From contig JALOBE010000004.1 in assembly GCA_023228425.1 (NCBI GenBank), positions 1,912 to 65,911 of the forward strand: DNA of 64,000 bases, given 5' to 3'. The stretch is from Syntrophales bacterium. Its GTDB lineage: Bacteria; Desulfobacterota; Syntrophia; Syntrophales; UBA2210. Positions 1,530 to 18,425 of the stretch are shown here, piece after piece. Below the pieces are notes generated by a model that saw only the letters and a list, made by a program, of their open reading frames with translations, had not been told where the DNA came from and ran no database searches. Numbering within the stretch: the stretch's first letter is position 1; each line of letters opens with the position of its first letter. The translations under genes and the position numbers were made by a program.

Positions 1530-3224
1530 ATGGATTCGGAATCCTCGAAAACGGTTATAGGACACATTATAGACGTTCAGGGTACCACCCTTACGGCTAC
1601 ACTGGTCGAGGATGAACAGGGCCAAGTTCCGACCGTAACAATAGGTGACGAAGACATTACGGTCGGCCAGATTGGCTCATATGTTGCCGTACGTCAGAAT
1701 GAGGTGCACCTCGTTGCCATCGTTACGCGAATGACCGAACAGGAAGCACTGGCGGCTCCAACGATCGAGACGCCCGGTGACCATACTGCGCGGCTCCCTT
1801 TTGCGAAGCGAATAGCTCGACTAACGCCAATTGGGTCAATACGATCAGATAGGGCGTTTGATCGAGGAATCGGCTCCTATCCGACAACTGGGGCTGAGGT
1901 GCATGCGCTCGGAACCGTAGAGATCGCGAAGCTATTTGAGCGGTTCTACTCAAAGGGGTTTGCCGTTGGAACAGTGGCAACGCATCCGGCCCTCAGAGTT
2001 TGTCTTGAACCATCTAACCTATTTGGGAGACATTCTGCCATTCTGGGGCAGACGGGATCAGGCAAATCTTGGACCGTAGCATCCCTGGTGCAGAAGACCA
2101 TTGAAGTCATGTCCAAGGCCCACATCATCATACTTGATCTTCATGGGGAGTATTGCTGGAGACAGGACGATGGAACCTGCTACTATGCCTTTCCTGACCC
2201 CGCTGTTCGGCACGTTGATGCCTGCGATTTAGAGATCCCATACTGGCTAATGACTTATGCTGAACTCGTTGATCTCTTGATTGAACGTAGCGAGCGCGAG
2301 GCAACCAATCAAACAGCCTTCTTCCGTGACTGCCTGTTGGAAGGGCGGCAATCAGAGAACGCCACCGCTACCCCGGCTCTCGGCCTCGCGAGAGTGACTG
2401 TTGATACACCCATCTTCTTCTCCCTGGACGCTATCTTAGATAAAGTACGCGCCAAGAACATTGAGCGCGTTGGAAACCGGCAAGGACCTATGTTCGGTGA
2501 TTTTGATCGTTTCCTGATGCGGATCGAAAGCAAGCTAAACGACACTCGATACGACTTTCTTCTGAAGCCGAAGATCCGCTCAACATCCGCGTCGCTATCG
2601 TCTCTTTTGCGTGATTTTGTTGGTCTTGGTGACAGAAAGGTCCCGGTTACTGTAATCGATCTTTCTTCGGTGCCGTTTGACGTTCGTCCGACCGTCGCCG
2701 CCCAGATAGGTCGGTTGGCGTTCGAGTTCAACTATTGGAACCCTCAATATCGGGAATTTCCGGTCCTCTTAATATGTGAAGAGGCCCATGTCTACATTCC
2801 TCGTGCTGCTGAAAACCAATTCGCAGGATCACGTAAGTCAATGGAGCGTATCGCCAAGGAGGGCCGCAAGTACGGAGTGGGCCTGTCTGCCGTCAGCCAG
2901 AGGCCTCACGAAGTATCGGAAACAGTACTGGCTCAATGCGGCACTTTCATCTGTCTGCGAATAACAAACCCAGATGATCAGTCTTACATACGTAGTCTGG
3001 TACCGGAGAGCGAAGGCGATCTAGTCAGTGTTCTTGCGGGCCTGGGTCGAGGCGAGGCGCTTGTTCTTGGGGAGGCCGTCCCTATCCCAACCCGGATAGT
3101 GTTCGACAAGCCAAGGCCAGTTCCGAACAGTGATGACGTTGACTTTTACAATAAGTGGAGGACAGGACCGGATGATCTGGACGTAGACGCAATTGTTAGG
3201 CGTTGGCGCAGCCAGGAGAGGTGA
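1530..3224 (+). CDS. HerA-like (DUF87) P-loop ATPase, partner of the SIR2 protein
   Basis: 564-aa ORF. Motifs: Walker A GQTGSGKS, DLHGEY, Walker B LLICEEAH, and SQRPHEVSETVLAQCGTFICLRITNPDD. AAGGAGG lies 7 nt upstream of the ATG. The junction with the SIR2 gene is TGAATG. Confidence 0.85.
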   Translation: MDSESSKTVIGHIIDVQGTTLTATLVEDEQGQVPTVTIGDEDITVGQIGSYVAVRQNEVHLVAIVTRMTEQEALAAPTIETPGDHTARLPFAKRIARLTPIGSIRSDRAFDRGIGSYPTTGAEVHALGTVEIAKLFERFYSKGFAVGTVATHPALRVCLEPSNLFGRHSAILGQTGSGKSWTVASLVQKTIEVMSKAHIIILDLHGEYCWRQDDGTCYYAFPDPAVRHVDACDLEIPYWLMTYAELVDLLIERSEREATNQTAFFRDCLLEGRQSENATATPALGLARVTVDTPIFFSLDAILDKVRAKNIERVGNRQGPMFGDFDRFLMRIESKLNDTRYDFLLKPKIRSTSASLSSLLRDFVGLGDRKVPVTVIDLSSVPFDVRPTVAAQIGRLAFEFNYWNPQYREFPVLLICEEAHVYIPRAAENQFAGSRKSMERIAKEGRKYGVGLSAVSQRPHEVSETVLAQCGTFICLRITNPDDQSYIRSLVPESEGDLVSVLAGLGRGEALVLGEAVPIPTRIVFDKPRPVPNSDDVDFYNKWRTGPDDLDVDAIVRRWRSQER

Positions 3225-4476: not shown

Positions 4477-5415
4477 ATGATGCGTGTAATCAGATCGGTC
4501 GACCATATTCCGGCGGAAATGCGGAATTCCATTGTAACCATCGGCAACTTCGATGGTGTTCACCGGGGACATCGGCTTATTTTCAAAACCATGATCGAAG
4601 AAGCCCGTCCCCTGGGGGATCCGACGGTTGTCATTACCTTTGATCCCCACCCCAAGAAGGTCATTCATCCCGAGCGGCGTCCTTTTTTCCTTCTCACGCC
4701 GCTGGAGGAAAAGCTCGGTCTCATCGAGTCCTGCGGTGTCGACGCGGTGCTTGTTATCGGTTTCGACCAGGATTTCGCTGAAACCACGGCCCATGATTTT
4801 GTGAATTCGATCCTCTGGGAAGGCCTTCACCTGAAGAAGCTCTTCATCGGGTACGACTATTCCTTCGGAAAAGGACGGGTCGGCAACGCCGCGTTCCTGA
4901 AGGAGCAGGGGAAGCGGCTGGGATTCGCCGTGCACCAGGTGGAGGCCGTTTCCGTCGGGGACACCGTGGTGAGCAGCACCAACATCCGCCTTTCCATTCT
5001 CGACGGCGACGTCCGCCTGGTGTCTCGAATGTTGGGACGTTATTATGACGTGAGGGGCACCGTGGTGAAGGGATACCGCCGGGGTACGGGCATGGGGTTT
5101 CCCACGGCCAATATCGCGTCTGAAAAGGTCATACCCAGGGTCGGCGTTTACGTTATCTACGCCGTTATCGACCATCGGCGCTACGAGGGCGTCCTTAACA
5201 TCGGTTTCAACCCAACGTTCGGCGACAACCAGCTTTCCATTGAAGGGCACCTGTTCGATTTTCAGGGAGACATTTACGGAAAGGATGTGACCATTCTTTT
5301 TGTCGAACGTCTGCGTGACGAAATGAAATTTCCGGGACCAACGGAACTGGCCGAACAGATTTCACGAGACATCCTCAGGGGAAAAGAAATTCTTGCCCGG
5401 GAGTCTTCCTCGTGA
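4477..5415 (+). CDS. ribF: Bifunctional riboflavin kinase / FMN adenylyltransferase
   Basis: ORF 4384..5415. Contains the IGNFDGVHRGH motif and a C-terminal riboflavin-kinase region (GFPTANI, EGHLFDF). The start was moved to the internal ATG (MMRVIRS) to give a typical length. Confidence 0.85.
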   Translation: MMRVIRSVDHIPAEMRNSIVTIGNFDGVHRGHRLIFKTMIEEARPLGDPTVVITFDPHPKKVIHPERRPFFLLTPLEEKLGLIESCGVDAVLVIGFDQDFAETTAHDFVNSILWEGLHLKKLFIGYDYSFGKGRVGNAAFLKEQGKRLGFAVHQVEAVSVGDTVVSSTNIRLSILDGDVRLVSRMLGRYYDVRGTVVKGYRRGTGMGFPTANIASEKVIPRVGVYVIYAVIDHRRYEGVLNIGFNPTFGDNQLSIEGHLFDFQGDIYGKDVTILFVERLRDEMKFPGPTELAEQISRDILRGKEILARESSS

Positions 5416-5493
5416 CGATCCGGGACCTATGAATCGTGTCTTTTTTAAGGAGCCCAACGGCGAGAATTATTTCTTTGGTATCATCATCCTGCA

Positions 5494-5701
5494 AGATTTC
5501 TCCCTGCGGTCGAAATGACGGGGATGGCGGTCGAAATGACTCACTGGAATGGTCGAAATGACACAATGGGACGGTCGAGATGACCCACTGGAATGGTCGA
5601 AATGACGGGGATGGCGGTCGAAATGACCCACTGGAATGGTCGCAGTGACGGGGATGGCGGTCGCAATGACACAACCGATAGTTTTTCAAACGTCTCAAGC
5701 C
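5494..5701. repeat. Repeat composite A: eight phased GGTCGAAATGAC cores plus the terminal module
   Basis: Eight 12-nt cores lie between 5508 and 5670. They are separated by 9-10-nt spacers of three recurring types (ggggatggc, yCACTGGAAT, acaatgggac). The array ends in gacacaaccgatagtttttcaaacgtctc. Confidence 0.9.
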
Positions 5702-5738
5702 GTTGAAGGGGTGTGACGGCGCAGTCCGTTTCCATGCG

Positions 5739-6434
5739 ATGAACATCAGACATTTTCACGACTGGAAGGTGGATTACGCCGGGGCGGCGCGTATCCAAAA
5801 GGATCTGGCGGGCCGGGTGATCCTGCGCGACAGGGGTTTGCCCGATCGGATATCGCTCGTGGCCGGCGCCGACGTTTCCTATTCACGGGGCGACAACGTC
5901 ATGTACGCCGCCGTGGTTGTCCTTGATTTCGCGAGCATGGAGACCGTGGAAGAATCCTGTCGGGCTGTCACGGTCGACTTTCCCTATATCCCGGGTCTTC
6001 TTTCCTTTCGGGAGGGACCGGCGCTCCTTGCGGCATTCGGAGACCTTCGAACAGAGCCGGAGGTTGTCCTGTTCGACGGGCAGGGCATCGCGCATCCCAG
6101 GGGTCTGGGGCTGGCGTCGCACATGGGTCTTTTGCTTGACCTGCCCAGCATCGGATGCGCCAAAAGCCGTCTTTGTGGTGAATATGACGATGTGGGCTGC
6201 GATCGGGGAGATTCGTCCCCCCTCGAGCACCGGGGGAAACGGGTGGGAGCCGTCCTTCGAACGAAGAACCGTGTAAAGCCTCTCTATATATCCCCGGGCC
6301 ACAACATTTCACTGGAGAGCGCGCTCGAGATCGTCCTGTCCTGCTGCCGAGGCTACCGGTTGCCTGAGCCGACGCGGCAAGCCCACCTGGCCGTCAACCG
6401 GCTGCGCGTCATGCTCCGGCAGTCTCCTCGTTGA
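5739..6434 (+). CDS. nfi: Endonuclease V (deoxyinosine 3' endonuclease)
   Basis: ORF 5703..6434 with the start moved to the ATG (MNIRHFHDW). Motifs: AGADVSY and DGQGIAHPRGLGLASHMGLLLDLPSIGCAKS. Confidence 0.85.
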   Translation: MNIRHFHDWKVDYAGAARIQKDLAGRVILRDRGLPDRISLVAGADVSYSRGDNVMYAAVVVLDFASMETVEESCRAVTVDFPYIPGLLSFREGPALLAAFGDLRTEPEVVLFDGQGIAHPRGLGLASHMGLLLDLPSIGCAKSRLCGEYDDVGCDRGDSSPLEHRGKRVGAVLRTKNRVKPLYISPGHNISLESALEIVLSCCRGYRLPEPTRQAHLAVNRLRVMLRQSPR

Positions 6435-6630
6435 TCCAGGCAAGGCAGGGCGCGAACCCTCCCTGGACGGGCAGTTTTATGATTTCAGGTACATCGTAGT
6501 TGTGGTTCTCTTCTATGCATGATTCGACGGCTGTGTATCGGCCGGCGGCGGTCTTTATCAGAAGCATCGCTTCCGGTTCATTCCGTTGCTTCGACCGCCT
6601 CTTGTCGTCACCAGCGGCTCTTTCCGTCAC
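6409..6630 (-). pseudogene. cutA: cutA (divalent-cation tolerance protein) remnant; only the C-terminal half is retained
   Basis: EAMLLIKTAAGRYTAVESCIEENHNYDVPEIIKLPVQGGFAPCLAWINEE matches the C-terminal half of CutA (..ILKT...HPYxxPE...LPV....YLxWL). Everything 5' of about nt 6588 is repeat-family sequence, and no N-terminal half is visible in any frame. Confidence 0.5.
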
Positions 6631-7057
6631 CGACGTTTCCTTGTCATTTCGACTGCCCCCCTTCCGTCACCGACGTTTCCTTGTCATTTCGACTGCCCCC
6701 CTTCCGTCATTTCGACCGGAGGGAACCGGAGGGAGAAATCTTTCACAATGACGGCAGGATGGCTGCGGAGAAAGATTTCTCGTCGCTTCGCTCCTCGAAA
6801 TGACGGTATGTGGGTGCCCCTCGAAATAACAGGCAGCTTGAGAGCTTTTGGACATGACGGCACTGTGAGCGCTTCTTCAGGCGGCACAATTCAGAGACCT
6901 TTCATTTTGTCATTTCGAGGAGCGAAGCGACGAGAAATCCATGTCCCGAGCAAAGCGAGGGATCTTTCAGACTTCTCACATGCGTTCGAAGTGACAGGGG
7001 AACGTTCGAAGTGACGGGGGAGAGGTCGAAATGACACAATCGATAGGTTTAAAGGTC
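6588..7057. repeat. Repeat composite B
   Basis: Order of parts: antisense GTCATTTCGAC units, a GAGAAATCT/AGATTTCTC dyad, GATTTCTCGTCGCTTCGCTCCTCGAAATGAC, an inverted 92-nt unit (6909-7000), and the terminal tcgaaatgacacaatcgataggtttaaaggtctc. The last module abuts the pyrE stop codon. Confidence 0.9.
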
Positions 7058-7639
7058 TCAGGCTTTCTTCATCCTTGTGTAGTAGTCCATAATCTCCGTG
7101 CGGCTGAAGATCGCCCGAACGTCGGGTACGAACGCTTCTATTGCCTGCTTGCCGCCTTCTTCGCGGTCGATGAAGGCGATCACCGAATCGACGACCAGTC
7201 CCGCCTCCCGGACCCGATGTATTGCTTGTATGGTCGAACCACCGGTTGTTATGACATCATCGAGGACGATGACCCGTTCGCCGGCTTCGACATTGCCCTC
7301 GAGCGCGCTTTGGGTTCCGTGTGACTTGGCGTCTTTGCGCACGACAAAGGACTTGATGGGCCTCCCCCGCTGCCAGGAAATGATGGACAGGGCGTTCGCC
7401 AGTGGATCGGCGCCCAGCGTGAGTCCCCCCGCTGCCGTTATATCCCGGTCGGCGACCATGTCGAAAAGGACGGCTCCCACCAGGTTCATTCCCTCCGGGT
7501 CGAGGGTCGTGGGTTTGCAGTTGAAGTAATAGGTGCTGGTCTTGCCCGACGCCAGGGTGAAGGGAGGATCGTCCCGATAGCGGAATGACTTTTCGATGAC
7601 CATCTCCCGAAGTCGCGTTTTTATGGCATCCTGATCCAT
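7058..7639 (-). CDS. pyrE: Orotate phosphoribosyltransferase
   Basis: 193-aa ORF with the PRPP-binding motif VIVLDDVITTGGS and a PyrE-like N-terminus. Confidence 0.85.
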   Translation of the reverse strand: MDQDAIKTRLREMVIEKSFRYRDDPPFTLASGKTSTYYFNCKPTTLDPEGMNLVGAVLFDMVADRDITAAGGLTLGADPLANALSIISWQRGRPIKSFVVRKDAKSHGTQSALEGNVEAGERVIVLDDVITTGGSTIQAIHRVREAGLVVDSVIAFIDREEGGKQAIEAFVPDVRAIFSRTEIMDYYTRMKKA

Positions 7640-7717
7640 GTTGTTGTATCTCCTCCAGGCGATTTGCTGTTTTTATGTATTCATCATGGGTAGCCCCGTG
7701 ACCGACTCGTGCGGCAA

Positions 7718-7860
7718 CGAGAAATCTTTCTTGACTATCGCCACTGTGAAAGATTTCTCCCTCCGGTTCCCTCCGGTCGAAATGACGGAAAGAGCGGTCG
7801 CAATGATGGGGATTGCGGTTGCAGTGACATAATCAATAGTTTTTTAAAAGCGTTGAAGCC
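7718..7860. repeat. Repeat composite C
   Basis: gagaaatcttt...aaagatttctccctccgg dyad, followed by ggtcgaaatgac / ggtcgcaatgat / gttgcagtgac units and the terminal ataatcaatagttttttaaaagcg. Confidence 0.85.
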
Positions 7861-7877
7861 TTCCGGTACCATTGCTC

Positions 7878-8615
7878 TCACCATCGTTCATCTCGCAGCT
7901 CGAACCTGACGGGAACCTCGACGGTCATGACGAAGGGAACGCCCCGGTGTGTTGCCGGATCGAACCGCCATGCGCGGACCGTGTTGAGGGCTGCTCTGTC
8001 CAGGAGTTCGTGTCCTGATGAATGCGTGACTTCGACGTTCCGGGCGCTCCCGTCTGTTCCCACCGTGACCGAAAGCACCACCAGTCCTTCGCAGCCTCTC
8101 CTGCGGGCAGCCAAGGGATACTCCGGGGGCGGATTGCCACGGTACCGTGGAAGGGCTGGAACGACTGAACCTGCCTGTTTCCGACCAGTCCGGTCTGGTT
8201 CGGTCTCATCCGCCGTTCTTTCCGGTCGCTGCCGCAAGGGTAGTGCATCTTCGGCCGGTTTTTCAACCGATTTCTTCGACTTCGTTTCGGGGGCTGGTTG
8301 TGGACGTTTTGAGGGTGCCGCCGCCAGCGCCGGAGGTCGGTGCTGCCCATGGTTGTCTCGAGGATGGGCCGTCACCCAGGGGCTTGCCTCAACAGGCCGC
8401 TGTCGTTTTCCCGGTTGCGCGGGCTCATTTTCGCCGGGACGGGCCTGAACCGACGCGTCCGGTTTTGTCCCGACGAAAGACACCTCCAATGTTCGTTTTG
8501 ACGGGATTTTCAGCATTACGGGCGAGAAGGGCTTCGGCAGGTGTAGCACGGCCATGGACCCGTGCAGGGCCAGGGCGATGACCAGGGCGATACCGAAGCG
8601 TCCCGTTTCTCTCAT
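7878..8615 (-). CDS. tonB: TonB family energy transducer
   Basis: N-terminal membrane anchor, a Pro/charged-rich linker, and a C-terminal TonB domain (PEYPLAARRRGCEGLVVLSVTV...GVP). Confidence 0.8.
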   Translation of the reverse strand: MRETGRFGIALVIALALHGSMAVLHLPKPFSPVMLKIPSKRTLEVSFVGTKPDASVQARPGENEPAQPGKRQRPVEASPWVTAHPRDNHGQHRPPALAAAPSKRPQPAPETKSKKSVEKPAEDALPLRQRPERTADETEPDRTGRKQAGSVVPALPRYRGNPPPEYPLAARRRGCEGLVVLSVTVGTDGSARNVEVTHSSGHELLDRAALNTVRAWRFDPATHRGVPFVMTVEVPVRFELRDERW

Positions 8616-9073
8616 CTCTCTGAAGACTCCCCTGGTGGTTTGAAGGTTCTTTCGCCGGCTTCCCCCTCTCCCGCTTTTCCTGTTGTTTCGAGCACAACGC
8701 CCGTCACGCCCGCCGATCGGATGGCGTCCATGACGAAGATAATCCGGTCATAGGAGACGTTCCTGTCACCGGAAACCATGACTCGCTGATCGGGATCTCC
8801 CCGGAGCAGCAGGGTGACCTGTCGGGACAGTGTGGACGGTTCGACCCGGTGGCCTTCAAGGAATATGGTCCCGTCGGCATCGATGGAGACAGTGACGGGC
8901 GCCCCCTTTTCAACCGAAGCGGTGCCGGCACCGGGGAGCTCCAGGCTGATGCCTTTCTGGGCCGTCATGGTCATGGAAAAGAGGATAAACGTGACCAGTA
9001 GCAGAAAAATGACATCGAGGAGGGGGATCATCTCGATGCGCGCCTTGTGTCGCCGGGGTCGCGCGATCTTCAT
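8612..9073 (-). CDS. exbD: ExbD/TolR biopolymer transport protein
   Basis: 153 aa with IEMIPLLDVIFLLLVTFIL typical of ExbD/TolR. Overlaps tonB and exbB by 4 nt each. Confidence 0.85.
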   Translation of the reverse strand: MKIARPRRHKARIEMIPLLDVIFLLLVTFILFSMTMTAQKGISLELPGAGTASVEKGAPVTVSIDADGTIFLEGHRVEPSTLSRQVTLLLRGDPDQRVMVSGDRNVSYDRIIFVMDAIRSAGVTGVVLETTGKAGEGEAGERTFKPPGESSER

Positions 9074-9690
9074 CGGCCGTCGCCCTTTCCGTTCTTGTTT
9101 TTTTCCACGAGCATTTCAAGGGTTGTGGCGTATTTTTCAATCTCGTCCGTCGCCTTTTCAACACGATCGGAAAAATAATTGTAGGGGATGAGACTGAAGA
9201 TCGCGATGACCAGCCCGAAGGCTGTGGTTATCAGTGCCTGGCCGATTCCGGCCGTAACGGCGGCGGGATTGTTAACGCCGGCCTCTCCAAGGATGGTGAA
9301 AGAAAAGATGATACCCGTGACGGTTCCAAGGATTCCCAGAAGCGGAGCCAGGGTGATCATGGTGTCCAGAACGGGCAGGTAGCGTCTCATGCGGCTGATT
9401 TCTTCGCCGGCGGCCATCTGGAGGGCTTCCCGGAGAGAGAACTCCCGGTGGACCATACCGCAGACAAGCACCCTGATGCGGGGATCACGGGAACCTTCAG
9501 CCAGCCGGCGGGCACCCTGGAGGTCGTTTTTCTCGACGCAGGCCATGAAGTTCTCGATTCCGGCAAAGTCGCTGTCACGCCCCTGACGAATCCAGAACAG
9601 GGCCCGTTCAATGATAACGGTGAGGGACAGGATGGAGCAGAACAGAAGCGGATACATGACGGGACCGCCCCGGCAGAAATAGTCGATCAT
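9070..9690 (-). CDS. exbB: MotA/TolQ/ExbB proton channel protein
   Basis: 206 aa with a three-TM ExbB pattern (APLLGILGTVTGII, GIGQALITTAFGL). Confidence 0.85.
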   Translation of the reverse strand: MIDYFCRGGPVMYPLLFCSILSLTVIIERALFWIRQGRDSDFAGIENFMACVEKNDLQGARRLAEGSRDPRIRVLVCGMVHREFSLREALQMAAGEEISRMRRYLPVLDTMITLAPLLGILGTVTGIIFSFTILGEAGVNNPAAVTAGIGQALITTAFGLVIAIFSLIPYNYFSDRVEKATDEIEKYATTLEMLVEKNKNGKGDGR

Positions 9691-9744
9691 GTTGCGAACC
9701 TTTCCTTTGATGCGAGCGTTGAAGAAGCGTCGTTTGCGGTGTTA

Positions 9745-10341
9745 CGACCGCTGTTTCATTTCAACAGGTCTATCGTGTTCTTCAGATTGTTCTATATCGC
9801 TCGATTGTTTCAGTTTGACTGCCCTCTTCTATCATTTTGATCGCCCTCCCCGCCAGTTTGCCCGCTCTTTCCGTCGTCTCGACCGCCCTCCCCGTCAGCT
9901 TGACTGCCCTCTTCCGTCGTCTCGACCGCCCTCTTCCGTCATTTTGCCCGCTCTCTCTGTCTTTTCGATTGCCCTCCCTGTCATTTCGACCGGAGGGAGA
10001 AATCTGAAGAGATCGCACTAGAAGAGAAAGATTTCTCGTCGCTTCGCTCCTCGAAATGACGGAATTAAACACTCCTCAAAATGACGGGATTCAACGCTCC
10101 CCTGACGGGATTCAACGTTTCTCGAAATAATGAAATACACAATGTCCTTCGAAATAACGAAATGCACAATGTCCCCTGAAATAACGGAATGCACAATGTT
10201 CCTCGAAATGACGGAATTAAACACTCCTCAAAATGACGGAATTCAACGCTCTCCTGACGGGATTAAACGTTTCTCGAAGTAACGGAACGCGCAATGTTCC
10301 TCGAAATGACGGAACGCACAATGTTTCTCGGAATGACGGGG
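9745..10341. repeat. Repeat composite D (about 600 nt dyad-organised array)
   Basis: The left arm has about eight antisense 20-22-nt units (tYtYgaYYgccctcYYc...). The centre holds a gagaaatct/agatttctc dyad. The right arm has about twelve sense 20-28-nt units starting tcgaaatgac/tcaaaatgac/tcgaaataac, and includes an internal about 153-nt higher-order duplication (10048-10128 vs 10201-10277). Confidence 0.9.
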
Positions 10342-11310
10342 TTAAAAAAACTCTCCTGTTCCCGCGTCCGGCACGTCTTCAGGGCCTGTCTCTTCCGCCG
10401 GGTGAAGGAAGGCCGCCAGTGTTTCGATTCCTTCGACGAGCCGCGGCGTCGGCTGGTAGAGTATGTCCGGGTCGATAGAGTAAATACGGCCGCCGGTGAC
10501 GGCGGGGATGTCCCTCCAGCACGTCCAGCGCTCTGTCCGGGACCGTCCGGTCGTTTCGGTGCCCATGGACGCGAGGATGATGACCTCGGGCATTGCGGCG
10601 ATGACCATCTCCATGTTCACCCTCGGGTAGCGGATGGCGGAATGGCTGAAAACGTTGATGCCGCCCGCTGTTTCTATGGCCCGCTCATGAAAGGTTCCTC
10701 CACCGACGGTTATGAGCGGATCAGCTGAAACCTGGAGAAACACCCGGGGTTTCGCTCTGCCGGCGTGGCGCGCGGCCACCCGGTCCAGGCGACGGCCCAG
10801 ATCGTCCACAAGAAGTATCGCCCTCTCGGATGTCCCCGTAATGATGCCGAGATCGACGATCATGGCGAGCATGCTCTCCAGGTCCCGGGGATTCGTGACA
10901 TACACGGGAAAGCCCGCCCGCTCCAGTTGGATCACTGTCTCCCTGGGGTTGCCATCGACGGTGGCAATGATGCAGTCCGGGTCGAGACCGATGATCCGTT
11001 CCAGTGAAAGGGAGGTGAATCCTCCCACCTTGGGCCGGTCCAGGGCCGCGCCGGGGTAACGACTGTCAGTGGTGACGCCCACGATCTCCTCATCCAGGCC
11101 CAGGGCGAAGAGGGTCTCCGTGATATTAGGCGCAAGCGATACGATCCGTTTCGGGGGCTCTGGAATAATGACGGTCCGGCCCAGGGCGTCGGTGTAGCAA
11201 GCCGCTTCCGCCCGGGCGGGAAGGCGCGGAAGCAGAAGGAGAATGAGGAGGATGCACCAGGCCACCGTGAAAACGGTGACGATGGTGGTTCTCTTGGCGT
11301 GTCCGTTCAT
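10342..11310 (-). CDS. Periplasmic binding protein, BtuF/FhuD-like (cobalamin or Fe-chelate ABC system)
   Basis: 322 aa with a signal peptide and the IVSLAPNITETLFALGL motif of the PBP type-2 (PF01497-like) family. Confidence 0.8.
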   Translation of the reverse strand: MNGHAKRTTIVTVFTVAWCILLILLLLPRLPARAEAACYTDALGRTVIIPEPPKRIVSLAPNITETLFALGLDEEIVGVTTDSRYPGAALDRPKVGGFTSLSLERIIGLDPDCIIATVDGNPRETVIQLERAGFPVYVTNPRDLESMLAMIVDLGIITGTSERAILLVDDLGRRLDRVAARHAGRAKPRVFLQVSADPLITVGGGTFHERAIETAGGINVFSHSAIRYPRVNMEMVIAAMPEVIILASMGTETTGRSRTERWTCWRDIPAVTGGRIYSIDPDILYQPTPRLVEGIETLAAFLHPAEETGPEDVPDAGTGEFF

Positions 11311-11440
11311 TGCAATGATGACCTTTTTTGAAGGGTCCGTAGAAAACCGGCGAGCCTGGTATTTCCCCCGTATCAGGAATCCTGTTATTCCCGCCGGGGT
11401 AGGCTATAGTGCCCGCCAAGGTACATCCAGGGTGTAACGA

Positions 11441-11691
11441 CCGTTTGAAAACCTGTCGAAACCTTTGCACAACTGTCGATTATGTCATTTCGATATCAAG
11501 GAAAGATTTCTCGTCGCTACGCTCCTCGAAATGACATTTTTAAAAGTCACTTCGAACTTTCCCCTGTCACTTCGAACGCATGTGAGAAGTCTCAAAGATC
11601 CCTCGCTGCGCTCGGGACAGGGATTTCTCGTCGCGATGCTCCTCGAAATGACACAATGAAAGGTCTCATGACAAAATTTAAAGGTCTCGAT
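11441..11691. repeat. Repeat composite E (MITE-like, about 190-250 nt)
   Basis: The left end is ttgcacaactgtcgattatgtcatttcga. It contains one 92-nt unit (11561-11652). The right end is tcgaaatgacacaatgaaaggtctc...aaaggtctc. It ends 1 nt before the receptor gene stop. Confidence 0.9.
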
Positions 11692-13746
11692 TCAGAACCG
11701 GACCGACAGCCCTCCCTTGATGGTGCGACCCGGAGCGGGATAGTAGGTGTTGTCGCCTCCCCACTGTTGCATGTCGAAGCCGTAGGTAGCGTATTCTTCA
11801 TCGGTGATATTTTCAATCCCGAGGAAGGCGCGTAGCTCAACCCTTTCGAGGACGGGACGATAGTGGAGGTAGAGGTCGAACGTGGTTCGTCCTTCCAGTT
11901 TTTCCGTGTTGTTGTCGAAGTCATCGGCAAGAAAGGCGTCACCGACGTGATGAACTTCCGGTCGGAAAATAAGGTCGCCGGGCAGGACAATCTCCAAGGC
12001 CAGGGAGGACATGAATCGAGGAGCCATAGGCACATCGTTCCCACTACAGATGCCCTCCCGGAATTTTGAACGGCTGAAGGCGGCGTTTCCTTCCATGGTG
12101 AAGAGATCGTCAAGCCGGTAACGGGCGTTGAACTCCAGACCCTCGTGGCGCGTACTGTCCAGGTTCCTGTTCTGTCCCGTGGGCCACAGACCAACGTAAA
12201 CGATTTTGTCTTTCATGTCGATCCTGTAGGCGGTAAGACCGACCCGAAGGTTTTCCAGGAGGGAAAACCGCCCTCCCACCTCGTAAGAGCGCCCCCGTTC
12301 CTTGTCCAGGTTCTCCAGGAAGGTAATGGGAAAGCCGAGATAGGACGCCTGTTCATCGAGAAAGGGATACCGGAAGAAGGTGCCGTAGGTGGCGAAAAGG
12401 TTCGATTTTTCTCCACAGAGCCAGGTAAGACCCGCATCCCACGCTGTTGCGCGGTGTACTTTTTTCGTCTGGTCGAATCGTTCCGTGGGATCGGCGGCGT
12501 TGTGATAGCCGCCGGTGATGGTTGCCTGTTCGGCACGCAGGCCGGCACTCAAAACAAGTGATGGCAGCAGGGAAAATTCGTTGCGAAGATAGCCGCCGAT
12601 GCTGCGTTTCGTGAACTCGATGGCATGGGTCCTGGCTGATCGTCCCGGATCGCCGTACTTGTCGAGGTCCATCGTTTCCCTGTAGAAGTCCAGTCCCAGG
12701 GTAAGCTTGTTGGTCTGTCCCGCGATGGTGCTTTCAAGGACGTAGCGTGGCGTTATCGCCAGGGTTCCCATATCGTAGGTGTTGTACTGGTTCGACCATT
12801 GGGAGGGCATATCCGGCTCCAGTTTTTTCGATCCATAGGCAATTCCCAAAGAAAATTCACCGGAATCGCCAAGGTATTTTTCCATGAGGATATGGATGTT
12901 ACTGTAACGATCGGACGACTCGTCATTCAGGTGGGCAGGAGACTGGGCCTGTTTCCGGTCCACCGCCATCTGGGCTTTCGTAAGCGCTCCCGGCATGTCA
13001 TAGTCTGTCTCGTTGCAGGAGAAGCCGAAAGACAGCTTGATGGTATCCGTGGCGGCATACCCCACGTCGAGACCGGCTCCCCGGGAAGAAAACTTCGATC
13101 GCTCCCGGTATCCGAAGGTTTTCAGGTTTTCACCGAACAGGCTATAAGAAAGGTTTCCCTTCGAGCCGGATACCCCGAGCCGTTCGTTGTGAAGGCCGTA
13201 GCTGCCGATCATGACCGACGCATCGAGGGTGGGGGGTCCTGTACCTTTCTTTGTAATAATGTTGATCACACCGGCGACGGCGGAGTCGCCATAGAGAACG
13301 GCCCCGGATCCGCGGACCACCTCGATGCGGTCGATTGTGGCCAGGGGAACCTGGAGCCAGTTGATGGAGTGCATGTCGGGACGGTTGAGTCGCCGTCCGT
13401 CGAGCATGACCAGTACCGTGCCGAAGGGGTTGTCGCCGCCCATGCCGCGCAGATCGACCATGGCTTCCGAGGGGTTGCCGCTGTAAGATCGGACATTGAC
13501 GCTTTCCAGCTTTTCCAGGAGCTCCACGACGGATGTCGCCCCCGACTGTTCGATGTCATCGGCGGTTATGACACTCACGTTGGCCGGGATCTTGCGAACC
13601 TCTTCGATCCCACGGGTGGCTGTCACTACTACCTCTTCCAGCACGACGGTGTGTTCCTGTTCCGTTCCCCGGGCGTGCTGGGCCCATCCTGTCTGGCTGA
13701 CGAAGAGGATCGAGGTTGCGGCAAGGAACAGTGTGAGATGTTTCAT
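11692..13746 (-). CDS. TonB-dependent outer-membrane receptor (BtuB-like context)
   Basis: 684 aa with a signal peptide, a plug region (VVVTATR, IPANVSVIT), a beta-barrel and a terminal aromatic residue (..LSVRF). Confidence 0.85.
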   Translation of the reverse strand: MKHLTLFLAATSILFVSQTGWAQHARGTEQEHTVVLEEVVVTATRGIEEVRKIPANVSVITADDIEQSGATSVVELLEKLESVNVRSYSGNPSEAMVDLRGMGGDNPFGTVLVMLDGRRLNRPDMHSINWLQVPLATIDRIEVVRGSGAVLYGDSAVAGVINIITKKGTGPPTLDASVMIGSYGLHNERLGVSGSKGNLSYSLFGENLKTFGYRERSKFSSRGAGLDVGYAATDTIKLSFGFSCNETDYDMPGALTKAQMAVDRKQAQSPAHLNDESSDRYSNIHILMEKYLGDSGEFSLGIAYGSKKLEPDMPSQWSNQYNTYDMGTLAITPRYVLESTIAGQTNKLTLGLDFYRETMDLDKYGDPGRSARTHAIEFTKRSIGGYLRNEFSLLPSLVLSAGLRAEQATITGGYHNAADPTERFDQTKKVHRATAWDAGLTWLCGEKSNLFATYGTFFRYPFLDEQASYLGFPITFLENLDKERGRSYEVGGRFSLLENLRVGLTAYRIDMKDKIVYVGLWPTGQNRNLDSTRHEGLEFNARYRLDDLFTMEGNAAFSRSKFREGICSGNDVPMAPRFMSSLALEIVLPGDLIFRPEVHHVGDAFLADDFDNNTEKLEGRTTFDLYLHYRPVLERVELRAFLGIENITDEEYATYGFDMQQWGGDNTYYPAPGRTIKGGLSVRF

Positions 13747-13907
13747 GAAATCACTCCTATCCTTTCAAGGTTGATGTTCTCGTAAAAAGTCCGGAAAACG
13801 TCTGATAGAGGGCGGCTTTGTACAAAGCTCCTTGAGAGCGCAATTAAACATCCGGACTTTTTCTGAAGCCGTCAAGGTTGTTTCCTTTGAGCTCTTTGAG
13901 GGCTGTC

Positions 13908-14086
13908 TCTTGTGTCATTTCGACCTCTCCCCTGTCACTTCGAACGCATGTGAGAAGTCTGAAAGATCCCTCGCTGTGCTCGGGACATGGATTTCTCGTC
14001 GCTACGCTCCTCGAAATGACAAAATCGCTCTGCTCCTCGAAACGACGAAATCGCTCTGCTCCTCGAAATGACACAATTCAAAGTTC
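13908..14086. repeat. Repeat composite F
   Basis: Starts tgtgtcatttcgac, contains a 92-nt unit (13929-14020), then aaatcgctctgctcctcgaa units. The terminal gaaatgacacaattcaaagttctca overlaps the ATPase stop codon. Confidence 0.9.
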
Positions 14087-14863
14087 TCACCTGATCATGA
14101 CCCGAGGTCGCCCCGACTTCGCGTCACGTTCCACCCGAACGTCTGTTTCGTAGACGTCGGTGACGCGCTCTTCGGTGATGACTTCTTCCGGGCTGCCCAG
14201 GGAGTGGATGGTTCCTCCCGAAAGCAGGAGCAGCCGCTCGCAGTAAAGCGACGCCAGGTTCAGGTCGTGGGTGACGGCAATGATGCCCAGTCCCTGCTCC
14301 CGATTGAGTTCCGTCAGCAGGTCGAAGGTTTCCTTCTGGTACTTGATGTCGAGGAAAGCCGTCGGCTCGTCCAGGAGCAGCATCCGGGGCTGCTGGGCAA
14401 GGGCACGGGCGATGAGTACCCGTTGACGCTCACCACCGCTCAATTCGGTCATGCTCCGCCGGGCGAAGGACAACAGCCCCGTCCGCTTCATGGCGTTCCG
14501 GGCAATGGCGAGGTCGCTGTCGCTTTCGAATTGAAAGCGGCCCAGGTGGGGGGCCCGGCCCATGAGCACCACTTCCTCGACGGAAAAAGGGAAGACCGGA
14601 CTGCTGTCCTGGGGTACCACGGCGATGCGCCGGGCGATGTCAGCACGCCTCATATCCTGCATATTCAGACCGTCCAGGGACACTCTTCCCCGCTGCGGAA
14701 CGGCGAGGCCGCTGATTATCCTGATGAGTGTCGTTTTTCCCGAGCCGTTGGGCCCGATTACTCCCCAGAAGTCTTCTGTCGAGAAATTGCAGGACAGATC
14801 CTCGAGTACCCAGGGGCCGTCGTGATAATGGAACCAGATTCCTTCGAGGAAGAGTGCCTTCAT
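14087..14863 (-). CDS. ABC transporter ATP-binding protein (BtuD/FecE-like)
   Basis: 258 aa with Walker A GPNGSGKTT, signature LSGGERQ and Walker B LLLDEP. Confidence 0.85.
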   Translation of the reverse strand: MKALFLEGIWFHYHDGPWVLEDLSCNFSTEDFWGVIGPNGSGKTTLIRIISGLAVPQRGRVSLDGLNMQDMRRADIARRIAVVPQDSSPVFPFSVEEVVLMGRAPHLGRFQFESDSDLAIARNAMKRTGLLSFARRSMTELSGGERQRVLIARALAQQPRMLLLDEPTAFLDIKYQKETFDLLTELNREQGLGIIAVTHDLNLASLYCERLLLLSGGTIHSLGSPEEVITEERVTDVYETDVRVERDAKSGRPRVMIR

Positions 14864-14867
14864 GGTA

Positions 14868-15890
14868 CTACCGGTCCCTTCGTTTCAGGAGGTAGACAAA
14901 AAAGGGAGCCCCGGAGAGGGCTGTCACGACACCCACGGGGAGATCGGCATAGGGGATCACCGAACGGGCCAGCGTGTCCGCTGCCATGAGGAAAATGCCT
15001 CCGAAGAAGAAAGCCGCCGGCAGTAAGATCCGGTGATCGGAACCGAAAATCATACGAACCATGTGGGGAACGATGAGGCCCACAAATCCGATAATCCCGC
15101 TGAAGGCGACGGCCAGGGCCGTCAGGAGTGATCCCGTTATAAAAAGCGTGAGCTTTACGGCTTCGACATTGACGCCCAGGTGTCCCGCCGTTTCCTCACC
15201 CAGGACGATCAGGTTCAACGGCCGGGCATGGGCGTAAACGATACAGAATCCCGCTGCCAGGAGCGCGAAGAGCAGGCTCAGGTTCACCCGGTCGGCGGAT
15301 CCCAGGTTGCCCATGAGCCAGTGGGTGATATCCAGCAGCTCCCCGCTGGTGCTGAGGGACAGGAAAAACATGATCAGGGCCGAGAAAAAGGCATTCACGA
15401 TCACACCGGCAAGAAGAAGTGTCGCGGGTCGAAGCGATGTTCCCGTCCGGCCGATGAAAAAGACCAGTGTCATGGCGCAGGCGGCGCCCAGAAAGGAAAG
15501 GGCGGGTACTCCCCAGAAGAAGGCGCCCAGGCCGGCAATGATGGCGACCACCGCCCCCAGGGCGGCTCCGCCGGAAATTCCCAGGATGAAGGGGTCCGCC
15601 AGGGGGTTACGCAGGAGCGCCTGGTACAGAACGCCCGCCGTTGCCAGAGAAGCTCCCGTGATGCCGGCAAAAAGCAGGCGGGGGAGGCGGATCCGGAACA
15701 GGATGACCCGGTCCACCGTGGCGGGGACGGGGGCGTCGGCGGTCCAGGATCGAATAATTTCCTCAACAGCGCCGGGGATGTCGATTCCCGTGGGGCCGAT
15801 GGCCATGGAAAACACAAGCGTCACGGCGAAAAGCAGCGCAAACAGTGCCGTCACAGCCAGAACGCGGGGAAAAGTCACCCTTGTGTTCAT
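14868..15890 (-). CDS. FecCD-family ABC permease (BtuC-like)
   Basis: 340 aa, polytopic, with a typical FecCD/BtuC pattern (RLPRLL.., GISGGAALGAV, C-terminal GAPFFVYLL). Confidence 0.85.
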   Translation of the reverse strand: MNTRVTFPRVLAVTALFALLFAVTLVFSMAIGPTGIDIPGAVEEIIRSWTADAPVPATVDRVILFRIRLPRLLFAGITGASLATAGVLYQALLRNPLADPFILGISGGAALGAVVAIIAGLGAFFWGVPALSFLGAACAMTLVFFIGRTGTSLRPATLLLAGVIVNAFFSALIMFFLSLSTSGELLDITHWLMGNLGSADRVNLSLLFALLAAGFCIVYAHARPLNLIVLGEETAGHLGVNVEAVKLTLFITGSLLTALAVAFSGIIGFVGLIVPHMVRMIFGSDHRILLPAAFFFGGIFLMAADTLARSVIPYADLPVGVVTALSGAPFFVYLLKRRDR

Positions 15891-16065
15891 ACGAGTCCTT
15901 TCCTCGCGAGGCCCTTTCGTATCAGGCCGAAACGGGGATTTCGAGTTATGTCGTTTCGCGGATCATTCAAAATTTTGTCACCTTGAAGACACGTACTGTC
16001 TCATCACTTTGAGCCTTGTATATTCTGTCATCCCGGGAGGTACCGGACATTCATCCCTCTCGGCG

Positions 16066-16228
16066 GGTTGTGTGCATTTCGCCATTTCAGTGTGCCGTGT
16101 GCATTTCCTCATTTCGATATCAAGGAAAGATTTCTCGTCGCTTCGCTCCTCGAAATGACAAAATCGCTCCGCTCCTCGAAATGACGGACCTTAAGACGCT
16201 CCTCGAAATGACACAATGAAAGGTCTCG
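16066..16228. repeat. Repeat composite G, inside the leader between the riboswitch and the permease gene
   Basis: tgtgcatttc units, then atttcgatatcaaggaaagatttctcgtcgcttcgctcctcgaaatgac, aaatcgctccgctcctcgaaatgac, and the terminal gaaatgacacaatgaaaggtctc. Confidence 0.9.
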
Positions 16229-16482
16229 TTTGCTTTTGCCGGGGGGATACTACGTGTCAAGGACCTGTCACGCCCGGCTGGACAGCTCCATCCCCGCGGG
16301 TGCTTCCGGATTTCCGCCTTTGTGGGAACTACATAACGGGCAGTTTTTCAGATGCACCAGTGGGGTTCGGGCCTGGGGGCCGGACACGCCTCGCCGGTAC
16401 CGATTACGACGGTGGAGACAGCGATTGTACATTAATTGTGCAAAACGAGTGCTTCGCGACGCACCTCCCTCGAGGTTTTCCT

Positions 16483-16622
16483 CATGGATCGGTATTCCGG
16501 CTCAGGGCGACCTACTGGTCCGTCTTCCCATCACGCGGGCGTGATAGTGACATGGTGGACGTTCGTTCCCTTTACGGCTGCGGGGCAGCGGGGGCTTTTC
16601 ACCCCTCTTCCTCACATCCATG
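16483..16622 (-). promoter_or_regulatory. Cobalamin (AdoCbl-type) riboswitch aptamer
   Basis: The minus-strand RNA reads CAUGGAUGUGAGGAAGAGGGGUGAAAAGCCCCCGCUGCCCCGCAGCCGUAAAGGGAACGAA...GUCACUAUCACGCCCGCGUGAUGGGAAGACGG...GAGCCGGAAUACCGAUCCAUG. It contains the GGUGAAAAxCC...GCxGxCCCGC..C.GUAA core, the CACU-hairpin-GGGAAG element and a B12-box-like AGCCGGAAUACC. CAUGGAU/AUCCAUG can form P1. It lies upstream of the BtuC-like operon. Confidence 0.7.
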
Positions 16623-16772
16623 GGCGATATGAATAGACGGCATACTACATGATCGGGGATATGGGGTCAAATGTTTTTTGATGATGTTAGCAACACCCCG
16701 GGATGTCAGGTGCTTTTGACATGGAATTGTGCGGTACTGTCTTCCGGTGTCAGGAGATATTTCCGTACATGT

Positions 16773-17759
16773 CTACAGTTCGGTGCGGCGGAGTTCTTCA
16801 GATGTGCGTGTTGTGAGATAGGAGGGAGCGATGTCAAAGACCGTCTTCGCTCCTACGGAGCCTTCGCGGTTCAGTCTGAAGGCGGCGCGGGCGTAGGCGA
16901 TCAGGATACTCGCCGTGAAGTAGGGATTGCTTTCCAGCTTCAGGCACAATTCCATCAGTTGTTTTGAATTGTCGGCGGTTCGGGCCGACCGTACGACACA
17001 GCCGCCGTGGGGCATGGCTCCGTGACGTTCCCGCATTTCTTCAGGGGAGATGAACGTTACTCGGGTGTCGTACCCGGCGAAGTAGTGGGGCATGGCTTTG
17101 ATTGATGCCTCTATAGCCGCCTGGTCGGCTCCTTCCCGGGCTACCACGTAGCAGATCCGGAGATGTTTCTCTCCTGTCGACAGGATCGGCTCGTCTCCCG
17201 ACCGGACCCGGTCAAGGGCGCTGTCGGTGGGGAGGGTGTACTGCCGGGCGTCCAGAACCCCTTCTATCCGCCGAATGGCGTCGGAGTGGCCCTGGCTCAC
17301 ACCGGGCCCCCAGAACGTGTAACTCGTTCCCCGGGGCAGAAAGGCTTCCTCGAGGACCCGTACCAGCGAAAAGAGGCCCGGGTCCCATCCGGTGGCGATC
17401 ACCGCCGTGGTTCCCGCCTGTCGTGCCGCAGCGTCCACAGCCTCGAAATATTCGGGAATGCGGGCATGGGTATCATAGCTGTCGACGGTATTGAACATTC
17501 CCGCGAATCGCGGCCCCTGCTCAGGAAGGTCCGTGACGGAGCCGCCGCAGAGTATGGCAACGTCGATGTCCGGTATGAATGCGGGCGCGTCATCGACGTG
17601 ATACACCGGTATTTCCCCGTTGGCCGGCGTGATCGACGAGGGGGCTCTTCGAGTAAAAATACCGCGGACGTCCATGTCCGGGGCCGATGCCGCCTCTTTC
17701 TCGGCGGCCTGCCCGATGTTGCCGTAGCCGATAATGCCGATTCTGATCCGTTCGCTCAA
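16773..17759 (-). CDS. ddh: meso-Diaminopimelate D-dehydrogenase
   Basis: 328 aa with an N-terminal Rossmann motif IGIIGYGNIG. Overall length and pattern are typical of Ddh. Confidence 0.8.
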   Translation of the reverse strand: MSERIRIGIIGYGNIGQAAEKEAASAPDMDVRGIFTRRAPSSITPANGEIPVYHVDDAPAFIPDIDVAILCGGSVTDLPEQGPRFAGMFNTVDSYDTHARIPEYFEAVDAAARQAGTTAVIATGWDPGLFSLVRVLEEAFLPRGTSYTFWGPGVSQGHSDAIRRIEGVLDARQYTLPTDSALDRVRSGDEPILSTGEKHLRICYVVAREGADQAAIEASIKAMPHYFAGYDTRVTFISPEEMRERHGAMPHGGCVVRSARTADNSKQLMELCLKLESNPYFTASILIAYARAAFRLNREGSVGAKTVFDIAPSYLTTRTSEELRRTEL

Positions 17760-17892
17760 GGGTGTCCTTTCGGGTTCTGTCGTGAAGAAACCGAGAGGCA
17801 GTCTATCGGCGCGGGGAAGGCCCTGTCAAGAAAAAAGCACCCTGGAATCGGGTGATGCATCCTTCGATGAGCCCGGTTCCGATCGCTGAGTG

Positions 17893-18425
17893 CAACCTTT
17901 GCACAACTGTCGATTGTGTCATGTCGATATCAAGGAAAGATTTCTCGTCGCTTCGCTCCTCGAAATGACGGACCTTAAGGTGCTCCCCGAAGTGACGGAA
18001 TTAAACACTCCTCGAAATGACATTTTTAAAGGTCACCTCGAACGTTCCCCCGTCACTTCGAACATTCCCCTGTCACTTCGAACGCATGTGAGAAGTCTGA
18101 AAGATCCCTCGCTTTGCTCGGGACATGGATTTCTCGTCGCTTCGCTCCTCGAAATGACGGGCCTTAAGATGCTTCTCGAAGTGACGGGCCTTAAGATGCT
18201 CCCCGAAGTGACGGGTCTTAAGGCGCTCCTCGCAATGACAAGGAGCGTTTTGAATACCAGCCATTTTTGTCATTTCGACCGGAGGGAGAAATCTTTCACT
18301 AACGGCCATCATCAGGATTTCTCGTCGCTTCGCTCCTCGAAATGACGGACCTTAAGGTGCTCCCCGAAGTGACGGGCCTTAAGGCGCTTCTCGAAATGAC
18401 TGGAGTTACAGTGCCCGTCTCGTTG
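17893..18425. repeat. Repeat composite H (about 530 nt)
   Basis: The left end ttgcacaactgtcgattgtgtcatgtcgatatcaaggaaagatttctcgtcgc is about 75 nt near-identical to composite E. It has a 92-nt unit at 18067-18158 and multiple tcgaaatgacgg(a/g)ccttaag(g/a)tgct units. The block 17941-17995 is duplicated at 18321-18375. Confidence 0.9.

Follow-up and report, generated by a model that had tools for sequence, protein, structure and literature searches.

Two overlapping bodies of work describe the repeats closest to those considered here. Repetitive extragenic palindromic (REP) sequences tagged with CGTC or TGTC, as delineated by Di Nocera, De Gregorio and Rocco in 2013, have stems starting with AT, form head-to-head dimers, are found in five phyla and include dRS3 as a member (PMC3733652). 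No REP-associated tyrosine transposase (RAYT) was seen flanked by CGTC repeats, and the identity of the enzyme serving them was left open (PMC3733652). For the Neisseria-type motifs, this question was answered in 2025, when Chenal et al. reported that dRS3/NTS and the Ssn-related motifs (SRMs) are bound and cut, as single-stranded DNA (ssDNA) only, by 94-aa single-domain GIY-YIG nucleases, whose ssn genes are flanked by their repeats (PMC11893778). In that system, the C following the palindrome is critical for SsnA binding and the three bases preceding the palindrome are critical for cleavage, the RNA form of the repeat is not bound by Nm SsnA, split hairpins are still cut in vitro, and ssn is absent from 19% of SRM-rich genomes; cutting of one strand, in ssDNA only, a few nt 5' of the tag was shown for the Neisseria and Wolbachia homologues (PMC11893778). 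Here, we describe a repeat family that occupies the gaps between genes at 5.5-18.4 kb in a 64-kb stretch of a Syntrophales bacterium contig (JALOBE010000004.1; hereafter, the window). We consider it likely that the composites formed by these repeats are mosaics of a single strand-specific DNA hairpin repeat family of the CGTC/TGTC-tagged REP/SRM class.

The original prediction had not recognised the family. Its units nevertheless resemble the CGTC/TGTC-tagged REPs, from which they differ in loop and tail (PMC3733652), and have the tag-hairpin-C layout of the Ssn-related repeats (PMC11893778). The class itself is already known, so that correspondence with a catalogued REP or transposable element holds at the super-family level only; judged from the published descriptions, the widespread sub-family with G·A mismatches seems undescribed.

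Hairpin units with G·A mismatches

The TCGAAATGAC core, with at most one mismatch allowed, has 56 matches in the window, compared with 6.43 +/- 2.64 in dinucleotide shuffles (largest shuffle, 14); 51 of these matches lie inside eight composites and 2 more at 45229-45309. These counts bear out the proposal of a core-based family filling the intergenic gaps at 5.5-18.4 kb, with a further copy at 45.2 kb, as well as its description as one modular, non-coding repeat family with inverted ends, and the prediction was likewise right about the GAGAAATCT/AGATTTCTC dyad and about the end modules. The title of the prediction spoke of nine consecutive gaps, whereas eight composites are listed in the region. 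The 31-nt module exists, but the claimed 11 or more copies come down to 10 at <=3 mismatches (7 exact and 3 near-exact), with 0 in shuffles. Every composite is intergenic, and the clustering is local, with cores present in most gaps of >=40 nt between 5.4 and 18.5 kb compared with 1 of the ~21 such gaps in the other 45 kb. Inside the composites, Tandem Repeats Finder identified periods of 20, 21-22, 26-27, 40, 43 and 152 nt. No Rfam family matched the repeats, either at the gathering threshold, which is reached only by the cobalamin riboswitch and two tRNAs, or at E <= 1, where the sole sub-threshold match on a composite is a plant miRNA model (E 0.46); a literature search with the core sequence returned primers only.

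The core represents the 5' half of a short hairpin unit, which in its basic form spans 25-31 nt on one strand. Four types of unit share a common plan. An unpaired (T/C)GTC tag comes first, followed by a stem of 5 bp (4 bp in type D), by G·A and A·G in tandem, by two pairs that close a loop of 3-4 nt (mostly GNA) and, once the stem has ended, by an unpaired C. The stem appears as ATTTC/GAAAT, ACTTC/GAAGT or TCCC/GGGA. Both the YGTC tag and the C after the stem are present in all units of the window. Type A has the form GTCATTTCGA-CC-GGA-GG-GAGAAATC and occurs three times on the plus strand and twice on the minus strand. Type B, which is the 31-mer read on the other strand, contains a second G·A step (GTCATTTCGA-G-GA-GC-GAA-GC-GA-C-GAGAAATC), and its hairpin-forming strand is the minus strand in nine copies and the plus strand in one. 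Type C (GTCACTTCGA-AC-GCAT-GT-GAGAAGTC) is represented by three plus-strand copies and one minus-strand copy, and type D (GTCCCGAGC-AAA-GCGAGGGATC) by at least one copy on each strand (6943-6964, plus; 11597-11618, minus). The strand bias by type is real but incomplete.

These units are assembled according to simple rules. The tandem arrays consist of type-specific 5' halves, namely, GTCATTTCGACC followed by 9-10 nt, GTCATTTCGAGGAGC followed by 12 nt, or GTCACTTCGAAC followed by 8 nt, and such half-site arrays invariably precede, on the 5' side, a full hairpin of matching type on whose strand they lie. Arms of different types face each other, with A opposite B three times and a short A' opposite B three times. 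For instance, the head-to-head A/B doublet at 18269-18346 comprises GTCATTTCGA-CCGGAGG-GAGAAATCT, a 21-nt spacer and AGGATTTCTC-GTCGCTTCGCTCC-TCGAAATGAC; the doublet is repeated at 6706-6804 and 9980-10060, and A followed by B is a pairing that recurs in many other phyla. The facing arms are accompanied by a lineage-specific leader, GAGACCTTTAAACCTATCGATTGT, and in four composites, the leader or the last half-site touches the stop codon of the preceding minus-strand gene. In addition, a C-D-B module of 112-127 nt is present in four copies, one of which (6894-7035) is inverted relative to the other three. This organization explains the apparent terminal inverted repeats (TIRs) reported originally, because the units sit head-to-head and are preceded by tandem 5' halves: the ends are indeed inverted, but they are head-to-head hairpin pairs with a leader rather than the two ends of one transposon. 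The chromosomal polarity ascribed to every composite does not hold as stated, given that any head-to-head inverted arrangement displays antisense cores on the left and sense cores on the right on either strand, so that this order carries no polarity information, and that the 112-127-nt module is inverted at 6894-7035.

The fold was assessed with a loose search pattern, which leaves every position free except GTCA, both GA steps and the last T, applied to 807 kb of unrelated loci from many phyla. Among the 137 matches, 102 have all five stem pairs and both closing pairs, and the matches include at least nine different complementary stems, such as ATTTC/GAAAT, ATTCC/GGAAT, ACCCT/AGGGT, ATGTT/AACAT and ACTTC/GAAGT. 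In the 93 distinct sequences, 88.3% of the cells pair, compared with 69.5% upon shuffling (0/500) and 19-54% in slid registers, and the covariation score is 0.531 versus 0.206 (0/500 again). Both sides change in six of the seven pairs, and the stem shows covariation across phyla. The first of its pairs, A-T, is imposed by the search pattern, and the second is U-A in 75 of the 93 sequences. Selection on a fold of the single strand accounts for such a covarying stem more readily than would a double-stranded site bound by a transposase.

Phyletic distribution and associated nuclease genes

The exact 31-mer is found in at least 120 stretches of species-representative genomes, with labels from roughly 15 phyla, including Chloroflexota, Desulfobacterota, Clostridia, Omnitrophota, Planctomycetota, Spirochaetota, KSB1, Calditrichota, Patescibacteria, Bacteroidota, Acidobacteriota, Alpha- and Gammaproteobacteria, and others. 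Most of the listed loci have an A-type unit opposite the B unit, at a distance of 20-30 nt, and half-site stutter is observed there as well. The 31-mer has 0 matches in 2.9 million viral contigs, so that a phage vector is without evidence.

The repeats are also linked to small nuclease genes. A motif search prompted by the literature identified GIY-YIG open reading frames (ORFs) at ~60-250 nt from the 31-mer in 4 of the 120 listed loci, which belong to four phyla. Pfam PF01541 is the sole family above cut-off in these ORFs, the three complete proteins are 90-106 aa long, and the proteins from the four phyla are 49-62% identical to the KSB1 member. The intervals between the GIY Tyr, the YIG Tyr and the Glu are 11 and 47 residues (Y10, Y21 and E68; alignment A1), the same as those between Y6, Y17 and E64, the residues mutated in Nm SsnA (PMC11893778). 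Taken together at the sequence level, the identical 31-mer and this degree of nuclease conservation across phyla may reflect transfer between phyla.

The linkage is also apparent when approached from the protein side. In 80 metagenomic loci picked by the protein alone, a hairpin unit is located <=300 nt from the GIY-YIG gene in 64 and on both sides of it in 47, and the unit density is 4.54 per kb near the gene versus 0.24 per kb away from it, a 19-fold excess. Units upstream of the gene are mostly on the gene strand and those downstream mostly inverted, the typical cassette being unit(+), ATG...stop, unit(-), with the upstream hairpin sometimes ending 1-6 nt before the start codon. Of 220 units, 215 have the C after the stem, although the search did not demand it, and 213 have T or C in front of GTC; binding and cleavage were reported to depend critically on these positions (PMC11893778). 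The published SRM pattern, by contrast, occurs near the gene in only 7 of the 80 nuclease loci. Cassettes in metagenome-assembled genomes (MAGs) of Deltaproteobacteria contain A-type, D-like and half-site units resembling those of the window. The same nuclease-repeat linkage is displayed by this sub-family, which is much more widespread and is invisible to the published SRM pattern. It adds candidates for new specificities of ssDNA nucleases, and with it the system reaches lineages that are anaerobic and uncultured.

The protein family itself is very large, with all but one of 8000 scored candidates at E <= 1e-10. Its only relatives in PDB are distant UPF0213 proteins (E ~1e-4), and NCBIfam contains no specific model for it. 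In the cultured Caldithrix abyssi (P0124-P0126; genome records, ~4.96-4.98 Mb), at least three distinct Ssn-like nuclease paralogues were detected, which suggests that the nuclease cassette itself multiplies. All-against-all clustering of the ORFs around the repeats recovered only common housekeeping super-families, such as ABC, SDR and aminotransferases, and no recurring transposase or DNA-binding family; with regard to targeting by an IS110/Piv-type recombinase, as occurs at dRS3, a recombinase-like family is not prominent in this clustering either, which included no IS110/Piv-specific search.

Several of the loci have peculiarities of their own. In three Deltaproteobacteria MAGs (L208-L210, 6001-6291), a hairpin-flanked GIY-YIG cassette lies between NuoE-like (2Fe-2S_thioredx) and NuoF-like (Complex1_51K) genes, which are co-oriented and normally form one operon; the hairpin on the upstream side runs up to the TTG start codon. 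In Desulfobacterales and relatives (L006, L013, L017, L028-L030, L039, L082 and L099), and likewise in Anaerolineae (L005, L010, L075, L085 and others), the A/B doublet is embedded in longer, lineage-specific palindromic elements, for example, CCTACAACGACACTT...AAGTGACGTTGTAGG, which are near-identical between MAGs and at which contigs often stop. The locus labelled Candidatus Micrarchaeota archaeon (L105) is probably mis-binned rather than an archaeal occurrence, because its element and flank are nearly those of a Deltaproteobacteria contig (L035). Finally, the Spirochaetota bacterium SO_2017_LW2_63 MAG (L004, L009, L084, L092 and L117) has composite segments of 100-200 nt at ~90% identity, as well as the leader, in common with the window, with no gene-level similarity in the stretches compared.

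Relationship to known systems and alternative explanations

The similarities to SRM and NTS-dRS3 repeats extend from the unit to its setting: an unpaired HGTC tag, a stem starting with AT that encloses a short loop and is directly followed by a conserved C; orientation by strand, hundreds of copies clustered around particular genes and a wide spread over phyla; and a GIY-YIG-only gene of ~94-106 aa with the repeat on both sides and the same Tyr/Tyr/Glu spacing. Unlike the eight continuous pairs of these repeats, however, the units described here have 5 bp, tandem G·A mismatches and 2 bp, the types A-D are mixed in fixed head-to-head combinations with tandem arrays of 5' half-units, an identical 31-mer spans roughly 15 phyla, and the host, a Syntrophales-like anaerobe, is not known to be competent. 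With the CGTC-tagged REPs, compared by their published description, the family shares the CGTC/TGTC tag, A-T and T-A at the first two stem positions, head-to-head dimers that are often heterodimers, an intergenic location usually just after stop codons, near-same sequences in distant phyla and the lack of a flanking transposase. Those REPs, in contrast, have uninterrupted stems of 8-9 bp, loops of 4-5 nt and a CCA-like tail, whereas here, two of the nine stem positions are G·A, the loop is mostly 3 nt (GNA) and sometimes 4, and the tail reads CTT or CTC, seldom CCA. The CGTC repeats were described as rarely clustered, whereas clustering is extreme here, and neither Deltaproteobacteria nor Syntrophales are named in the main text of PMC3733652.

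Further parallels exist with neisserial intergenic mosaic elements (NIMEs) and E. coli BIMEs, which are also intergenic mosaics of short inverted hairpin repeats and other short modules, vary between relatives and, like the composites, are located between operon genes. BIMEs, however, are built of GTAG-tagged REPs served by RAYT, and NIMEs alternate dRS3 with RS elements of 50-150 bp, whereas the filler here is mostly tandem 5' half-units and short spacers. The REPIN/RAYT systems described by Bertels and Rainey (2011, PMC3116915) likewise involve inverted hairpin doublets as the likely replicating unit and a small, repeat-flanked gene for an ssDNA enzyme; they differ in the enzyme (HUH Y1 rather than GIY-YIG), in the tag (GTAG rather than YGTC) and in their vertical, lineage-specific inheritance, compared with the near-identity across phyla observed here.

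By analogy with the Ssn nucleases, the hairpin would form on ssDNA, such as the lagging-strand template or incoming transforming or conjugating DNA, and be bound by the cognate nuclease in a manner requiring the stem and the 3' C, and the strand would be nicked a few nt 5' of the GTC tag (PMC11893778). Under the same analogy, dispersed units would be non-autonomous offspring of a nuclease cassette, and clusters bracketing genes would mark those genes for ssDNA cleavage, with an effect on recombination or transformation (PMC11893778). One might further speculate that each 5' half of an array pairs with the single 3' half, creating alternative cleavage registers; such pairing would be possible because split hairpins are still cut in vitro (PMC11893778).

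Several observations weigh against assigning the family to this class. The published SRM pattern, HGTCWYN(0-2)YYVSBRHN(0-5)WNVSBRGN(0-2)RNCYNB, has 3 matches in the window (0.5 expected), none of which is in the repeat family; the units fail it because the G·A mismatches sit within the stem. No GIY-YIG gene was found in the 64-kb window or in the 1.9 kb of contig beyond its left end. Furthermore, under the standard DNA energy model, types A, C and D reach only -2.6 to -2.9 kcal/mol (z ~ -0.2 to -0.8) and type B prefers another fold, compared with -8.9 kcal/mol (z -4.25) for the Neisseria NTS. Because the stability obtained with standard parameters is weak, the case for the hairpin draws on covariation and on the sheared G·A pairs and GNA triloops, whose stability exceeds what such models assume.

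A bolder version of the same idea is that the unit-nuclease-unit cassette is itself a mobile element of a kind not recognised so far, with the ~95-aa GIY-YIG ssDNA nuclease, in place of a transposase from a known class, driving the spread of hairpin ends and non-autonomous doublets over at least 15 bacterial phyla; half-hairpin arrays would then be footprints of cut-and-copy events, and clusters would arise by local re-insertion. We put this forward tentatively and regard it as rather unlikely.

The run of genes whose gaps carry composites, btuCD-btuB-btuF-exbBD-tonB, is co-oriented and headed by a cobalamin riboswitch (16469-16637, minus strand). The comparison contig L123, the BtuF of which is 66% identical, has the same order of riboswitch, btuC, btuD, btuB, btuF and exbB, but its operon contains zero cores and gaps of 4-46 nt, as opposed to 340-650 nt in the window, and the distance from the riboswitch to the first ORF is 150 nt, compared with 578 nt in the window, where a composite intervenes. 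From the coreless L123 run with its short gaps, it follows that the composites entered a compact gene run in the lineage of the window. Being located between co-oriented genes of an apparent riboswitch-led operon, they are probably transcribed. Lengthening each of the cobalamin-uptake gaps to 340-650 nt, including that between riboswitch and first gene, may bear on gene expression and on the reach of B12 control over the genes downstream.

A primary function at the RNA level, in which transcribed hairpins would stabilise, process or attenuate operon mRNA, would account for this position between riboswitch and first ORF and within the operon, and for the presence of the G·A strand of 9 of the 10 type-B units of the window on the mRNA-sense strand. 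E. coli REPs stabilise upstream mRNA, a point taken up in PMC3733652. Across other phyla, however, the type-B hairpin strand is sense to transcription 23 times and antisense 16 times, without an orientation preference, and the units come in inverted pairs, so that half of them are in the non-G·A sense. Terminator-like features are absent, promoter- and terminator-like sites showing no excess at the composites, and the predicted stability is weak. The lack of both an orientation bias and such an excess favours action at the DNA rather than the RNA level; moreover, the RNA form of the repeat is not bound by Nm SsnA (PMC11893778), and an RNA function would leave the linkage to nuclease genes unexplained. 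We therefore view a primary RNA role as improbable, whereas an RNA-level role may exist as a secondary effect.

Still less probable are classical miniature inverted-repeat transposable elements (MITEs), that is, elements bounded by terminal inverted repeats and mobilised by a DDE transposase acting in trans from another locus. The composite ends are inverted complements, the composites are absent from the syntenic relative, and the longer, well-bounded palindromic elements surrounding the A/B doublet in Desulfobacterales and Anaerolineae could be MITEs. The composites, on the other hand, do not constitute one bounded element: they vary in length (140-600 nt) and in module order and contain internal arrays and nested inversions. 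The supposed TIR is a hairpin unit with its leader, the covarying stem favours a single-strand fold over a double-stranded transposase site, and no transposase family recurs nearby.

Mobilisation by RAYT (TnpA-REP, HUH Y1), as for E. coli BIMEs and Pseudomonas REPINs, we consider very improbable, even though the layout would fit, in that the hairpins are short, carry four unpaired nucleotides on the 5' side and form inverted doublets, and the clusters are intergenic mosaics located right after stop codons (PMC3733652, PMC6006769). The tag is (T/C)GTC rather than GT[AG]G, and the gene flanked by the units encodes a GIY-YIG nuclease. A phmmer search with E. coli RayT gave no match at E <= 10 among six-frame ORFs of the window and the 120 loci (~870 kb), nor does any transposase-like family recur beside the repeats, in line with the report that no RAYT is flanked by CGTC repeats (PMC3733652). 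The prediction that the window contains no RAYT-like gene was correct in that no RayT-like ORF was found there; the family is non-autonomous in the window. Equally improbable are arrays of sites for a double-stranded DNA-binding protein, iteron-like or nucleoid-associated, that would be specific for GTCATTTCGA, with the 20-27-bp spacing providing helical phasing. The 10-12-nt core is indeed directly repeated at periods of 20, 21-22 and 26-27 nt, but the periods differ by hairpin type, and 26-27 nt is out of helical phase; compensatory changes maintain intra-strand pairing, the arrays are always 5' of a full hairpin of the same type, and no gene for a DNA-binding protein recurs nearby.

An assembly artefact from collapsed or chimeric repeats, which had been raised at the outset and could be suspected in a short-read metagenome assembly given that Logan contigs break at or just before the repeats, is barely credible: over the 11.5 kb that include the first four composites, a 128.7-kb JGI contig is identical and a 116.1-kb ENA contig differs by 1 nt, which makes an artefact unlikely provided that the assemblies are independent, a relative at 88% identity has comparable arrays at the same site, and the same units are present in hundreds of unrelated assemblies. 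The tandem copy number within arrays could still be mis-assembled.

Composites and their surroundings

Composite 1 (5494-5701, minus strand) lies between a ribF-like gene (4480-5415, plus) and the gene for endonuclease V (5739-6434, plus). Read on the minus strand, it consists of the leader, eight type-A 5' half-sites (GTCATTTCGACC and 9-10 nt; period 21-22/43) and the full A hairpin at 5495-5519. Composite 2 (6588-7057), between the stop codon of a phosphoribosyltransferase (PRTase) gene (7058) and cutA1, uses both strands, with type-A half-sites and a full A (6643-6740), B (6909-6939) and D (6943-6964) on the plus strand, and B (6774-6804) and C with its half-sites (6970-7035) on the minus strand; its leader module extends into the stop codon. 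Composite 3 (7718-7860, minus strand) separates the PRTase start from the tonB stop and contains the GAGAAATCTTTC/GAAAGATTTCTC dyad, a full A on the minus strand (7752-7786), degenerate A half-sites and the leader module. In composite 4 (9745-10341, both strands), located between the exbB start and the btuF stop, the plus strand carries an A half-site array (9810-9992, period 21-22/43) and a full A (9980-10004), and the minus strand a full B (10030-10060) and a B half-site array (10045-10339) with a period of 27 and a 152-nt super-repeat, which ends at the btuF stop codon.

Composite 5 (11441-11691), between the btuF start and the btuB stop, contains the left leader and a short A' 5' half on the plus strand paired with B on the minus strand (11505-11535), followed by C half-sites and a full C on the plus strand (11546-11591) and by D (11597-11618) and B (11622-11652) on the minus strand. 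Composite 6 (13908-14086), between the btuB start and the btuD stop, includes C on the plus strand (13934-13959), D and B (13990-14020) on the minus strand and a B half-site array (13999-14077, period 26). Composite 7 (16066-16228) is the one between the riboswitch and the btuC start (15890); it has a degenerate left arm, B on the minus strand (16129-16159) and two more B half-sites. Composite 8 (17893-18425), annotated in the region as the largest, contains in its left part the left leader with A' and a minus-strand B (17939-17969), B half-sites, and C half-sites with a full plus-strand C (18032-18097); in the middle, D and B (18128-18158) on the minus strand and a B array (18144-18239); and on the right, a plus-strand A (18269-18293) facing a minus-strand B (18316-18346), followed by a B array (18331-18400). 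The isolated degenerate copy at 45225-45343 comprises a B-like unit on the plus strand (ATCATTTCGAGGAGCATCGCGACGAGAAC), one A half-site on the minus strand and the leader module.

The spacers of the type-B arrays at 17970-18000, 18160-18230 and 18347-18390 contain a near-perfect palindrome, GGACCTTAAGGTSC, centred on CTTAAG, which in other B arrays (10045-10340) is replaced by GGAAC-N7-GTTCC. The repeats not only break assemblies but also yield spurious ORFs: those of 110-151 aa at 5375-5746(-), 6586-7014(+), 9689-10021(+), 16216-16632(+) and 17890-18345(+) arise from composites, in the case of 16216-16632(+) together with the riboswitch, and have a third-position GC of 0.51-0.56, compared with 0.63-0.76 in neighbouring real genes. 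Further upstream, a SIR2_2 gene (501-1529, plus) adjoins a DUF87/HerA_C gene (1530-3224, plus), as assigned by Pfam, a pairing that matches the SIR2-HerA type of anti-phage defence.

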